A stretch of 64,000 nt of DNA from NCBI GenBank assembly GCA_964016885.1, contig OZ024751.1:17918001-17982000 (forward strand), written 5' to 3'. The DNA comes from Eledone cirrhosa (lineage: Eukaryota). The position numbers and the translations under genes are program-made. Below, in pieces: positions 1,567 to 63,190 of this stretch; position 1 is the first letter of the stretch; every line of letters begins with the position of its first letter. Below the pieces are notes generated by a model, which was not told where the DNA came from, made no database searches, and saw only the letters and a list, made by a program, of their open reading frames with translations.

Positions 1567-1769
1567 AACGAAGGCGATGTGGTAAGGAATTAGATGGACC
1601 ATAACGCACCAGAGTACTCAATACTTAGGGTAGTAGAGTGGGTAATAGGAAAATGTATAACCCCAACGGCAGAGCTCAAGCCGTTTCGACAGCTATTTCT
1701 GTATTCTGGAGTCCAGAAATAGCCGTCGAAATGGCTTGAGCTCTGCCGTCGGGGTCATACATTTTCCTA
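1567..1769 (-). mobile_element. Family A fold-back element in (TA)n (putative Penelope-like 3' end, 3' half of hammerhead)
   Basis: Arms ...acggcagagctcaagccgtttcgacagctatttctg / cagaaatagccgtcgaaatggcttgagctctgccgt.... Same family at 3289, 8243, 20858, 42877, 44782, 44982, 54915, 55521 and 59562. Contains GAAA-cggc-loop-gccg-TC. Confidence 0.8.
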
Positions 1770-2913
1770 CACACATATATATATATATAAATATATGTGT
1801 GTGTGTATTTGTGTGTGTATAACAGCATATAGCTATAAATACATACACATATATATTCCTATATACATGCATACATACATACACATATATATAGTCATAT
1901 TCATATATACATACAAACATATATATACATATATTCATATATACATACAAACATGTATATACATATATTCATATATGCATACATATATATACACATATTC
2001 AGATATACATACATACATACATATATACACATTCATATATACATACATACATATATACATACATACATACATATATACACATTCATATATACATACATAC
2101 ATACATATATACACATTCATATATACATACATACATATATACACATTCATATATACATACATACATATATACACATTCATATATACACATTCATATATAC
2201 ATACATACACATTCATATATACATACATACATACACATATTCATATATACATACATACACATATTCATATACACATACATATATATATATATATATATAT
2301 ATATATATATATATATATATAACTTTTATATATATATATATAACTTATATATATATATATATAACTTTTTATGGACAACTTTTTCATTGTCACGAAGTTT
2401 TAATCGTCAGTATAAAGCATACGACACTAGCATTTTGCTGAAGTCAGACCAATCTTTTATTGGTGTGTTGTTAAGTGGATGGTAATTGTATGAAATCACC
2501 CTACTATTCCTCAAACAATTGATTAGTAAGTTTGAAATTTCCTGTTAACAAGTGTATTGTTTATCTACTATATTTATATATTTTAGTTTATTTTTTTGTT
2601 TCAGACTTCGGGACTCTTTGTCGTAAATAACTTGTTAGGACATCGTAATACAAGTTTTCTCTCTACTATTCTTTTGTAATGTCCTGGATATGGATCTGTT
2701 TGAACTGGATAGCACTGTTTTTGATTGGAAGGCTTTGGAAGGATTTAGTGGTAGAGATGGTGGGTGGTATTATTGGTAGGGTCATTTAGGGCAAAGGATA
2801 ACCCGAGTATTTTTCCAGATAAATTTAGCAATATATATAATTGTTTCTACTTTAGGCACTTACTTACACATATACGTACAGTATATATATATATATATAT
2901 ATAATATATATAT

Positions 2914-3260
2914 GTAGGAGGTGAATTTTATTGTAGCACAATAAAGCAATGCAAATATCGGATAAGTAGCACTCTACAGTTTGTATGACTGGAGTATAAA
3001 TAATATAAGATCGAAAGATGATTAAAAGAGTTCCAAGTATTTTATTATGCGCATTTCAAAAACAAATATCATCCTGGAATGATATCTGCGTTAATGTTGG
3101 TTTAAAACTTCACTATTCACAAGTGTTTTTTAAGCTTCATATCATGTATCTCTATTTTATCTGATGAAAACGCAGATATCATCCCAGGATGATATTTGTT
3201 TTTGAAATGCGTAGAATAAAATACTTGGAACTCTTTTAACCATCTTTCGATCTTATATTA
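2914..3260. mobile_element. Family B2 palindromic Penelope-like end with hammerhead
   Basis: 3003-3092 is the reverse complement of 3169-3260. Flanked by (TA)n. Related copy at 41548-42002. Confidence 0.8.
3153..3223 (+). ncRNA. Type I hammerhead ribozyme (B2)
   Basis: tattttat-CTGATGA-long stem II (aaacgcagatatcatcc/ggatgatatttgtttt)-GAAA-tgcgta.... The mirror arm and the 41.6 kb copy give GAAA-tgcgca-TA-ataaaata, so this copy is slightly mutated. Confidence 0.7.
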
Positions 3261-3288
3261 TATATATATACATATATATATATATATA

Positions 3289-3511
3289 AACAAAGAAAAT
3301 GTGGTAAGAAACCAGGTTACTCGATACCAGAGTACTCGATATTTAGGGTAGTAGAGTGGGTAAAATGGAAAAGAGTCAGGATCCCAACGGCTGAGCTCGG
3401 GCCGTTCCGGCAGCTAGATCCGAACTAACCCAGTAATATTTCTACTGGGTTAGTTCGGATCTAGCTGTGGAAACGGTCCGAGCTCAGCCATCGGGGTCCT
3501 GAATCTTTTCC
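3289..3511 (-). mobile_element. Family A fold-back element (divergent subfamily)
   Basis: Palindrome centred near 3436-3442 (cagctagatccgaactaacccagta/tactgggttagttcggatctagctg). Shares the gtactc..tagggtagtagagtggg tail. Confidence 0.8.
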
Positions 3512-3584
3512 TATATGTATTTAAATATATATATATATAGATAGATGGCGTAGGCATACGATACAACAGGAGGAAATATAATAG

Positions 3585-3626
3585 CACCACTGACGATGTT
3601 GCAGATGTGCAACGAAAGAACTTTGT
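3585..3626 (+). ncRNA. Degenerate minimal hammerhead motif
   Basis: CTGACGA-t-gttgca(gatg)tgcaac-GAAA-gaac-TT. Stem II is good, stems I and III are weak. Sits in an island between TA tracts. Confidence 0.45.
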
Positions 3627-4137
3627 TAGACTATATATATGTGTTTGTGTCTATATTGTATCTGTATTTTTGACCGTTGGTCAGCCAATAGTAACATTGA
3701 GGACCGAATAAATTAAATTAACCGATATAAAAGACACAGAAGCGAAAACCAACCAAACAGTGAGTGTGTTCTGTTATTAATTCTGGCAATACTATTACAC
3801 AAATATGACCCTCCCCAAGTATAACAATATATATATATATATATATATATATATATATAAAAGACGTAAAATAAGAAAATTTTAAAAAATTAAAAAATTT
3901 AAAAAATTAACTTACTTACTAAAATTTTCACTCCAACTAATTAGTTTCTGCAATGGGATAAATACAGTTACGTAATATATATATATATATATATATATAT
4001 ATATATATATATATATATATATATATATATATATATATGTGTGTGTGTGTGTGTGTGTGTGTGTGTGTGTGTGTGTGTGTGTGTGAGAGAGAGATTGTGT
4101 ATATGTATGAAGGTATATGTACATAAGTACATTTACA

Positions 4138-4231
4138 GAAGAAGAAGAAGAAGAAGAAGAAGAAGAAGAAGAAGAAGAAGAAGAAGAAGAAGAAGAAGAA
4201 GAAGAAGAAGAAGAAGAAGAAGAAGAAGAAG
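4138..4231. repeat. (GAA)n microsatellite
   Basis: About 31 perfect GAA units. Confidence 0.95.
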
Positions 4232-61136: not shown

Positions 61137-61173
61137 TCTTCTGATGAAGGACTAGCGTCGGAAACGTTAAGAC
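61137..61173 (+). ncRNA. Minimal hammerhead ribozyme (F)
   Basis: tctt-CTGATGA-aggactagcgtcg-GAAA-cgt-TA-aga. Palindromic aacgtt stem III. One stem II mismatch relative to the 54.7 kb copy. Confidence 0.65.
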
Positions 61174-61330
61174 CCTCTCCCTGCTATTTCAAGCGTTAAC
61201 CTAATAAATTCTTCCCACATACTGTACCGATTGTGTTGTTATTTCTGTTTTCCTTTTACATACATACATACATACGTACACACACACACACATATATATA
61301 TATATATATATATATATATATATATATATA

Positions 61331-61722
61331 TGTGAAGACAAACAGAATATTCGAAAATATTCTGTATGTTTATAATAAACATTTCGAAGACCCAATCGCT
61401 ATAGAATAGAATACGTCACGTATTACAATTTGAGATTCTCGATAAAAGCAAGGGAAGTAACCTACGCGTTTCATTCTATAAGTCTCTAGCTGTGTCATTC
61501 TCGATAAAAGCACTGGATATGTAACCCTGATGATTTCTAATAAGAATGAAACGCGTAGGTTACTTCCCTTGCTTTTATCGAGAATCTCAAATTGTAATAC
61601 GTGACGTATTCTATTCTATAGCGATTGGGTCTTCGAAATGTTTATTATAAACATACAGAATATTTTCGAATATTCTGTTTGTCTTCACATATATATCGCT
61701 ATTTCAGAGCATTATATCTACA
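61331..61722. mobile_element. Family E perfect palindrome in (TA)n
   Basis: 61331-61476 is the reverse complement of about 61544-61689. Confidence 0.85.
61496..61585 (+). ncRNA. Canonical minimal type I hammerhead with extended, bulged stem I (E)
   Basis: gtaacc-CTGATGA-tttctaataagaat-GAAA-cgcg-TA-ggttac. Distal stem attctcgataaaagca/tgcttttatcgagaat. Confidence 0.85.
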
Positions 61723-61827
61723 TATATATATATATATATATATATATATGTGTGTTATGAAATACTGTTAGCTTCTCGCTACAACAATTTCTATACATTT
61801 CATTTATATATATATATATATATATAT

Positions 61828-62039
61828 AGTGGTAGAACACTAGAAGGTAATATCCGTAGTGGTAGAGCACTCAGTCCATGGGACGAGTTAGGTAGAAGCG
61901 GTTACACAACAGTTAGTTCACCATTCCGAGAACAATTGTTTCACCTTAGTGTTTAACCATAACCATTACGAGCTGAGGATCCGTTAAGGTGAAATAATTG
62001 TTCAGGGTATGGTGAACTAACTGTTGTGTAACCACTTCT
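61828..62039. mobile_element. Family G inverted copy with hammerhead at 61970-62006
   Basis: cgag-CTGAGGA-tccgttaaggt-GAAA-taattg-TT. The inverted left arm stops in stem II. Confidence 0.75.
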
Positions 62040-62204
62040 ATATGTGTGTGTGTGTGTGTGTGTGTGTGTGTGTGTGTGTGTGTGTGTGAGTGTGTGTGTG
62101 TGTGTGTGTGTGTGTGTGTGTGTGTGTGTGTGTGTGTGTGTGTGTGTGTGTGTGTGTGTGTGTGTGTGTGTGTGTGTGTGTGTGTGTGTGTGTGTGTGTG
62201 TGTG

Positions 62205-62710
62205 TAGAAGTTTTATTTAATTTGTTGGGATACAACAAGCAAACATTTTTATAACTGATATAAAGCACTCAACAAATTTTTGGAGTAAAACTACAATATA
62301 TTAACAAATGGAAACTATATTTATAAAACCATATTTATTCCATGATACATATTTCAAGGACACCAAAGCAAATTATAGTGCGCTTTCATCAGATGAAATA
62401 TAATATAGATCAGTTTTATAAACAAATATTGACATACCCTTAAAGAATGCGACCATGTCGGTTGGAAGCTCATATATTATCCGGGAGCTTCCAACCGACA
62501 TGGTCGCATTCTTTAAGGGTATGTCAATATTTGTTTATAAAACTGATCTATTTTATATTTTATCTGATGAAAGCGCATCATAATTTGCTTTGGTGTCCTT
62601 GAAATGTGTATAATGAAATAAATATGGTTTTATAAATATAGTTTCCATTTGTTAATATATTGTAGTTTTACTCCAAAAATTTGTTGAGTGTTTTATATCA
62701 GTTATAAAAG
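62205..62710. mobile_element. Family B ~500-bp palindrome with hammerheads on both strands
   Basis: Axis at about 62471-62483. Plus-strand hammerhead 62556-62620 (CTGATGA at 62564, GAAA at 62601). Mirror tttcatcag at about 62384. Confidence 0.85.
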
Positions 62711-62952
62711 CGGTTATATATATATATATTTATGTTTGTTGTTTCACCACTGGATAGAACTGGTCATTCCGTATGATCAACCTCGATGTAATATCACGGA
62801 GAGCACTCGACATAATGCAACTCACCCGTCTTCGTTTGTATTGTGGGTGGGGCGAATACGGAGTTAATTATTATAAAACAACATGAGGCTGGTCTGGTGT
62901 AATTCCTTAAATGTTTATTATACTATGAACATTTCATATACATATATATATA

Positions 62953-63190
62953 TGCAGAGGTTATATTTAATTTGTTGGGATTCGACAAGCTTAAACATTT
63001 TTATAACTGAAATAAAGCACTCAACAGTTTAGTGGAGTAAATATACAATATATTAATAAATGGAAATTATATTTATAAAACCATAATTATTTTATTATAT
63101 ATATTTCAAGGGCGACCAAGATAAATTATGGTGCGCTTTCATCAGATAAAATACAGATTTATTTTATAAATAAATATATGGCATACCCGG
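62953..63190 (-). mobile_element. Family B 3' end with minus-strand hammerhead (~63088-63153)
   Basis: ttattatatatatttcaagggcgacca...tggtgcgctttcatcagataaaata. Confidence 0.75.

Follow-up and report, generated by a model that had tools for sequence, protein, structure and literature searches.

The DNA analysed here (the window) is a 64,000-nt stretch of the Eledone cirrhosa genome (assembly GCA_964016885.1, contig OZ024751.1, positions 17,918,001 to 17,982,000 of the forward strand), in which short islands with hammerhead-ribozyme motifs lie embedded in (TA)n repeats. An initial annotation, made from the letters alone, had ascribed them to Penelope-like element (PLE) lineages, and with corrections this is confirmed: the islands are 5′-truncated insertions of nine PLE families, mostly back-to-back pairs in TA repeats, plus one 310-nt retrozyme (family F). 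It is proposed, as the probable explanation for the nine families and F together, that a PLE enzyme with reverse transcriptase (RT) and GIY-YIG endonuclease (EN) parts nicks both strands of a (TA)n target and primes two cDNAs on one RNA. Part of the evidence for this proposal is a pairing rule: of the two arms of a head-to-head pair, one nearly always takes the first and the other the second of two fixed 3′ ends.

Two fixed 3′ ends and their pairing

In every family but G the insertions stop at two fixed 3′ ends, a short one and a long or tailed one, which lie about 35-100 nt apart. A TA bias of the flanks, suspected from the outset, is clear: (TA)4 occurs within 24 nt of 499 of the 567 short or long ends, compared with 931 of 18,068 background positions (5.2%). 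A count of head-to-head pairs unselected for their ends gave 124 classifiable pairs from eight families, and 119 of these combine one short with one long end (four long plus long, one short plus short; p about 1e-29 against 0.5). Twenty further pairs were left unclassed, 12 with an end at the edge of the locus and eight with an end at neither site, and 47 pairs from end-biased searches were tallied separately, all but one of them (46) being long plus short. When the end-biased pairs are included, the short arm is the one that extends more in the 5′ direction in 42 pairs and the long arm in 24; in 60 pairs the arms stop no more than 10 nt apart, and another 39 go beyond the reference. Because independent choice of a start site gives at most half short-plus-long pairs, and because either arm can be the longer one, two coordinated primings are likely to lie behind the pairs. 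The counted rule thus constrains the mechanism, where the prior literature had only a tail that is often found at one end.

In each of the six families tested, the two arms of a pair resemble one another more than they resemble other copies (0.038 against 0.102 in family A), and the junction between them differs from locus to locus. The ribozyme cleavage site is not where the insertions end, the truncations of A lying 35-50 nt upstream of the hammerhead cut site. AT-rich RNA letters stand directly past several start sites (the B2 long end and the F short end; L112, L111 and L313, where L-numbered loci are stretches fetched from the same genome as the window), and to judge from the letters, base pairing of a few of them with the TA tract at the nick is conceivable.

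Penelope-like open reading frames behind nine families

The PLE identity asserted in the initial annotation holds for nine of the ten families and fails for F: extended 5′ in the same genome, as had been advised, the nine lead to PLE-type RT/GIY-YIG open reading frames (ORFs) or ORF fragments. Family S2 has a 938-aa RT plus GIY-YIG ORF (RVT_1 and GIY-YIG by Pfam) between direct pseudo-long terminal repeats (pLTRs) at L091, and S1 lies about 1 kb behind an ORF that is sister to that of S2. B2 runs into a 750-aa ORF at L119 with RWR, DKT, YRDD and CxCX5C and no CCHH; in the sections consulted of the published description, a RWK/RWR-type motif, DKT, the CxCX5C linker and the lack of CCHH define the Hydra clade (PMC8557442). 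B2 is young, with 40 of 40 scored genome copies 100% identical over 234 nt. In a protein search with its endonuclease, the last 199 residues were 96-100% alike in at least 150 scored copies, with no other family among the matches listed, and in an Atlas search its protein falls among unnamed HTH_animal clusters.

Families A, B, C, D and E also run into Hydra-type ORFs or fragments. The last 40 codons of the D copy in the window are 85% identical to the ORF at L111 (E 6e-18), B has ORF pieces upstream in many of the loci L254-L272, E is linked at L328, L277 and L292, and C reaches endonuclease fragments only (L323, L324). An earlier tie of E to a Neptune-like ORF (L327/L328) was dropped, the ORF directly behind the E pLTR and the EN upstream being Hydra-type. 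The single ORF-linked locus of G (L221) is frameshifted and has a linker similar to that of S1 and S2 but ending in a stop. Direct-repeat pLTRs around an ORF were seen for B2 (L111, L112, L119), A (L224, L227) and B (L321) as well as for S2.

Pfam analysis of six proteins found RVT_1 in three and GIY-YIG in two, and neither in the three Hydra-type ones. The Hydra-type families show a visible likeness to printed Hydra proteins. A tree of 12 protein sequences, all from this genome, together with the motifs, separates six Hydra-type from six Neptune/Poseidon-type proteins (split support 100/100) and places G outside the S1/S2 group. The full set of Hydra motifs is present in B2 and those that fall within the fragment in A, B, D and E, C showing the EN end only; S1 and S2 have a CX4CxxC linker and the YLDD of the Neptune type. 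By motifs and by this own-genome tree, A, B, B2, C, D and E are thus best assigned as Hydra-type and G, S1 and S2 as Neptune-type, a provisional label with regard to Nematis.

Islands and hammerhead cores

Islands were grouped by self-BLAST. A BLAST search that used a single actual copy of each family as query then counted 31 in the window, which fall into ten families (A, B, B2, C, D, E, F, G, S1 and S2); the first estimate, about 25 islands and at least eight families, was right in outline and low in number. Their host is a background of 488 (TA)n tracts of at least 12 nt (10,369 nt), spread over the whole of 1-64000. TA content is 16% in the window against 5.3% in 40 evenly spaced stretches (396 kb) of the 3.0-Gb assembly, and the island density of 31 per 64 kb, against 49 per 396 kb in these stretches, is about four times that of the genome, in step with the higher TA content. 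A rough extrapolation from the 396 kb, which hold 41 motif matches (11 of them within one F array), puts the ten families at several hundred thousand islands genome-wide. First-look candidate numbers for the genome, to be taken as lower bounds or loose, are 996 for C, 577 for B2, 2,315 for A and 10,595 for GIY-YIG.

A strict hammerhead scan of the window returned 10 motifs and a wider descriptor 13 intact ones. After masking of simple repeats, 12 motifs remain in 33 kb, where 100 dinucleotide shuffles gave 0.08 +/- 0.27 (maximum 1), so that the motifs are real and well over chance level. An Rfam scan of the window returned no hammerhead among the 150 of 811 matches listed, all of which are below threshold and nearly all miRNA families on simple repeats. 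The six palindromic stems III named initially (tgcgca, tatata, cgcg, caattg, aacgtt, ccgg) were all found in some form. Outside the window, at least eight further hammerhead families were seen (L337, L347, L357, L362, L364, L126, L087, L096 and others), one of them with the stem III of Hydra-1_Obim.

A hammerhead motif occurs in eight of the nine PLE families, and S1 has a variant core. Cores as initially described are present in most families; the copies of A in the window have no 5′ core, and lesioned copies (those of D and G, together with two B copies and one E copy) do not pass the wider scan. The window copies of A that were seen (eight islands by BLAST) keep GAAA, stem III and UC and start inside the stem II loop, and longer A copies elsewhere in the genome carry a full hammerhead with the UUGAAAA core found in S2. 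This core had been taken for a one-off; it is instead the family-wide state of S2 and A, and the underlying U3-A8 swap is a published variant in Schistosoma (PMC4209133). Both arms of A islands usually end at one spot just 5′ of the 3′ strand of stem II (reference about 49-63; e.g. 20856-21053, 44984-45170 and L123-L152), whereby the commonest island type is core-less; the junction letters vary, and the sample was partly selected for that junction. In S1, GCAA replaces the conserved GAAA wherever the site is visible (window 28207-28562; L046, L054, L057, L059, L097, L108). A CTGACAA core considered for the palindrome at 28207-28562 was rejected, as the element reads on the opposite strand with the core UUGAAAA...GCAA. 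S1 nonetheless has many ORF-linked copies, which suggests that ribozyme loss is compatible with continued spread. Stem I of E shows compensatory changes in two pairs, with 93% of cells paired, in an alignment whose members, like those of the F comparison below, were chosen by a core-fixing pattern.

A ribozyme on each strand of the pairs, as initially described, is present as an intact motif in four of the 15 scored pairs of the window (C 43262, B2 54185, E 55126, B2 62208) and missing from the rest. The related idea that host introns crossing the region would meet self-cleaving structures is weakened by the many truncated or damaged cores, most arms being without an intact one. PLE hammerheads are moreover described, in the sections consulted, as cleaving weakly or only with protein (PMC4209133, PMC11167929).

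Family F, a 310-nt tandem retrozyme

Family F is a tandem non-LTR retrozyme and not a PLE end. Its unit of 310 nt (33.5% GC) forms arrays of less than one to about 46 units; the first incidental match was such an array, and a search then located arrays of identical units at five sites of C1. An exact pattern of the F short end followed by (TA)5 matches 982 times in forward (some doubled) and 628 times in reverse orientation, against 0 for the control, so that F has at least about 1,250 insertions. In the loci examined, arrays end in TA or in an inverted arm and have no ORF attached, and the array at L223 has no complex ORF of at least 200 aa and no PLE protein match.

The insertions of F bear the marks of PLE insertion. 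Four fetched loci hold concatemers that lie head to head in TA, with a short end on one side and a tailed end on the other. When distinct sites were taken in genome order, the first 14 comprised 12 head-to-head insertions, one single arm (L377) and one ambiguous case (L383). All eight second arms with a visible end among these stop at the long site; counting the window copy and the four loci fetched before, 13 of 13 pairs are short plus long. Measured from the hammerhead cut site, the two ends are about 127 and 164 nt further downstream, and the arms overlap or are separated by 0-4 nt at the junction in 10 of 11 pairs. Fixed variants are common to both arms in 10 of 11 scored pairs, those at L376, L379 and L382 being unseen at other sampled loci. 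Apart from the array of about 46 units, the units of one arm are mostly identical, and about ten unit haplotypes were counted by hand across 21 loci, nearly always fixed over all units and both arms. In the window copy the arms are identical over 146 of 146 nt and 95-96% identical to young arrays.

The loci contain 237 matches to the F motif (overlapping loci included). The circular unit folds with a z of -4.8, and 1.3 units are predicted to form a dimeric double hammerhead, stem III being open in the lone motif. Compared with a second tandem family, the stems covary in 8 of 12 pairs, most two-sided changes splitting the two families and hence counting once. This second family has a period of about 420-510 nt, a ctag stem III and the 45-nt geometry of F, and occurs as short-plus-long head-to-head pairs in TA with 34 distinct motif copies in the loci (L231:4713-5551, L101:8567-9561, L073, L344). 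An older family related to F (L004, L017, L032, L089, L229, L234) has patches of 72-85% likeness and shares the tail and TA ends of F.

Because F bears PLE insertion marks, it is likely a small circular RNA copied in by a PLE enzyme. Its arms cross many cleavage sites, so that the template should be a circle or an uncut multimer, and the locus-fixed haplotypes favour the circle. We lean towards reading F as a currently spreading circular-RNA parasite, on which a PLE enzyme primes twice on one 310-nt circle, once per nicked TA strand, after which the cDNAs roll and join head to head. If this is true, about 1,000 young loci record the mechanism by which an animal retrozyme is mobilised and also the short/long rule behind PLE palindromes and tails.

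In three of four sequencing runs of unstated kind a 340-nt contig steps back by 310, a result that fits tandem DNA and a circle alike; in run X1 the summed depths of F and of PLE ends are of similar order, though these are not copy numbers. Three runs labelled as other organisms (X4-X6) each gave one 340-nt contig that lies within 3-4 letters of the unit at L223:1000-1400, while matches to young B2 in these runs have several differences in every 85-90 letters. These F-like contigs may reflect related species, constraint, transfer or contamination.

Proposed insertion mechanism and alternatives

In the proposed mechanism an enzyme dimer would start from both of the internal sites already known, using a different one on each nicked strand, and the two cDNAs would stop at unrelated points and then join head to head. 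For the PLE ends the hammerhead would be a passenger of the pLTR that is likely unneeded for insertion. For F the template would be a hammerhead-made RNA circle, and each cDNA would roll round it several times to give a ready-made concatemer; the F hammerhead is predicted to cut multimers to unit circles as a dimeric ribozyme. There is precedent in a lizard PLE studied in vitro, for which the sections consulted describe cutting and extension of both strands, two internal start sites that bound the tail, a dimer model and a hammerhead whose cleavage is dispensable (PMC11167929).

The circular template is the part of this scheme with the most serious competitor, in which PLE-inserted F arrays are copied from long linear multimeric transcripts and no circle is involved. 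Such a template gives equal ends, target and pairing, and the mosaic state of the longest array agrees with it; to account for some ten haplotypes in 21 loci, nearly always fixed over all units and both arms, it needs a one-unit template or later homogenisation, and related animal retrozymes accumulate as circles (PMC7229834, sections consulted), so that we hold it to be unlikely. A route taken from a 2026 preprint (10.64898/2026.07.22.740005), in which F is inserted as a monomer or as a short PLE-derived piece and its arrays grow by unequal crossing-over while conversion makes the arms alike, appears very doubtful to us. Insertions below unit length do exist (the window copy, L371) and the array of about 46 units is heterogeneous. 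Inverted repeats can convert; yet at most sampled F insertions one arm or both hold several near-identical units, exact short or long ends abut TA and the junction contains partial units, and separate growth in place at about 1,000 young loci would be less economical.

The pairs themselves have been considered as products of a single priming, at the tailed end, after which the second strand is synthesised by fold-back, a route that would explain identical arms and the one tailed end per pair and to which family A, with both arms stopping within 10 nt in 50 of 72 pairs, lends some colour. Fold-back requires a short arm no longer than the tailed arm, whereas the short arm is the longer one in 42 of 66 unequal pairs and reaches further also at the F loci L313, L316, L372 and L382, and it gives no ground for a precise stop at the short end. 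It is largely refuted as a general route and improbable even when A, where it could remain, is allowed for. That the palindromes are miniature inverted-repeat transposable elements (MITEs) of DNA transposons or assembly artefacts, with incidental hammerheads, is scarcely credible. TA flanks and inverted repeats are MITE-like, and the window does contain a few small inverted-repeat elements that lack hammerheads and are flanked by TA; but the ends are unequal by a fixed tail, the junction differs per locus, the same sequences lead on to RT/GIY-YIG ORFs, point mutations distinguish old arms and compensatory changes are present in the stems. The symmetry expected of MITEs, with a fixed inner structure and symmetric inverted repeats, accordingly failed on the tail asymmetry and the variable junctions.

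Several observations weigh against double priming by a PLE enzyme, or against its extension to F. Five of the 124 pairs break the short-plus-long rule and 20 more were set aside, G has one end type only and no scored pair, and the ORF links are thin for G (one frameshifted locus) and C (EN fragments). No strand difference in start-site use is described in vitro in the sections consulted of PMC11167929, a result that does not account for the strict pairing. Within F, the pair at L371 has a variant on one arm only, the junction at L370 is rearranged, L377 is a single arm and L383 ambiguous, and the array of about 46 units is a variant mosaic and therefore grew or mixed after insertion. Variants shared by both arms could also arise via gene conversion or from one source array. 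A BLAST of F against the loci fetched by then found no autonomous family with shared sequence that could serve as helper.

Features of the window

The coordinates of all islands are collected in Table 1. Apart from them, small TA-flanked inverted repeats without a hammerhead lie at 24038-24133, 8049-8150, 15469-15530 and 23112-23181; they are MITE-like, and we presume a likeness to Tc1/mariner elements. An abundant, often tandem family resembling short interspersed elements (SINEs) occurs at about 14 places between 5348 and 58752, and a TA-flanked repeat without a hammerhead motif that is frequent in the fetched loci lies at 21100-21310 and 29563-30170. About 33150-35600 and 45990-47950 are taken up by a minisatellite (C/A-rich, about 55-60 nt) and an extended GGT-rich tract.

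Table 1. Positions of the islands in the window, by family.
Family	Position	Strand	Description
F	61332-61713	both	Head-to-head insertion of the 310-nt tandem retrozyme, below unit length; minus arm with short 3′ end, plus arm tailed
F hammerhead	61527-61557	+	Intact, type I
B2 (young Hydra-type PLE)	54185-54640	both	Short plus tailed head-to-head pair; one hammerhead per strand
B2-group	62206-62709	both	Head-to-head pair; one hammerhead per strand
B2-group	62954-63196	-	Single 3′ end with hammerhead
B2-group	22373-22647	+	3′ end with hammerhead
B2-group	26993-27112		Piece with hammerhead
B2-group	39883-40079		Piece, pair without core
B2-group	44416-44518; 672-746		Pieces
C (Hydra-type)	43262-43727	both	Short plus tailed pair; one hammerhead per strand
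E (Hydra-type)	55126-55393	both	Short plus tailed pair; one hammerhead per strand, stem III of 3 bp plus loop
E	38323-38526		Older damaged pair
B (Hydra-type)	2914-3266	both	Short plus tailed pair
B, second copy	41547-42003	+	Divided by a SINE-like insert (about 41730-41905); core damaged
D (Hydra-type)	23546-23989	+	Last 40 endonuclease codons (23546-23665), then pLTR
D, second copy	61829-62040		Pair
A (Hydra-type)	1568-1769	both	Short plus tailed pair, cut off within hammerhead stem II, no core
A	20856-21053	both	Pair
A or A-like	3289-3511; 8242-8385; 42887-43019; 44785-44960; 44984-45170; 54895-55105; 55522-55715; 59561-59707		Islands
S2 (Neptune-type)	53974-54169	+	Tailed 3′ end; hammerhead with UUGAAAA (U3-A8) core, ccgg stem III
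S1 (Neptune-type, sister of S2)	28207-28562	both	Short plus tailed pair; core UUGAAAA...GCAA
G (Neptune-like)	61043-61262	+	Single 3′ end, minimal stem III
G, other copy	54654-54876
G, other copy	55779-55863	-

Comparison with known systems

PLE ends with hammerheads in TA repeats are expected biology, and the families described here are new members of known clades as judged by published descriptions; the papers compared below are cited for the sections consulted. The islands had been called probably unannotated, which is not so for their kind, (TA)n-targeting Hydra-clade PLEs with hammerheads being in print (Hydra-1_Obim included), and holds in part. Hydra-clade PLEs (PMC8557442) share with our families a C-terminal EN without CCHH, the RWK/RWR, DKT, YRDD and CxCX5C motifs, a hammerhead near the 3′ end, (TA)n targets, an inverted 5′ copy and a tail at one end. 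They differ in that one family is listed for octopus (Hydra-1_Obim of Octopus bimaculoides), compared with six here; its stem III, accatggt, matches a family at other loci of this genome and none of those in the window. Tails are 65-100 nt here against the 30-40 nt stated for the clade, and family A departs from the Hydra examples in its U3-A8 core and long stem II. Neptune-clade PLEs of the same survey have GxKF, DKG, YLDD, a CX4CxxC linker, a CCHH-type GIY-YIG domain and a long 3′ untranslated region, in likeness to our Neptune-type families. A census of O. vulgaris counted 31 recently active Penelope-like families (PMC13282606). The PLE hammerheads of Schistosoma (PMC4209133) resemble those described here in their palindromic stem III, a bulge after the core, copies on opposite strands 100-700 bp apart and the U3-A8 variant, and S1 differs from these minimal hammerheads by GCAA for GAAA in the copies seen.

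Animal non-LTR retrozymes (PMC7229834; 10.64898/2026.07.22.740005) are like F in their tandem units of 150-450 bp with low GC, the lack of an ORF and their co-occurrence with PLEs, and the F hammerhead is like theirs in being type I, with a 6-bp stem I, a 4-bp stem II and, like the axolotl HHR_Amex2, a U.U at the base of stem II. These papers propose mobilisation by PLEs, as yet unproven, from co-occurrence and pLTR similarity, whereas the fetched loci show no homology of F to pLTRs; the insertions of F are the kind of footprint that this proposed process would leave in a genome. F forms head-to-head concatemers, has a pair of fixed ends with a tail and targets TA, features that are absent from the parts of these papers considered (the words 'inverted' and 'opposite' do not occur in the 2020 main text). 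A search of the open-access literature, with several supplements outside its scope, found no octopus retrozyme, no head-to-head retrozyme concatemers with PLE ends and no counted pairing rule.

The Poseidon PLE of Anolis (PMC11167929) is like the system described here in its adjacent pair of RT start sites and AT-rich target, in addition to the points given above. It differs in showing no strand bias in vitro, and neither a pairing rule of the 119/124 kind nor a tandem or circular template is addressed in the sections consulted. The helper enzyme of retrozymes and the origin of inverted, tailed PLE insertions are stated as open questions in these studies (PMC7229834, PMC8557442, PMC11167929). 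With a young retrozyme that bears the full PLE signature beside near-intact Hydra and Neptune ORFs, E. cirrhosa would hold donor RNA, candidate enzymes and target all in one genome.

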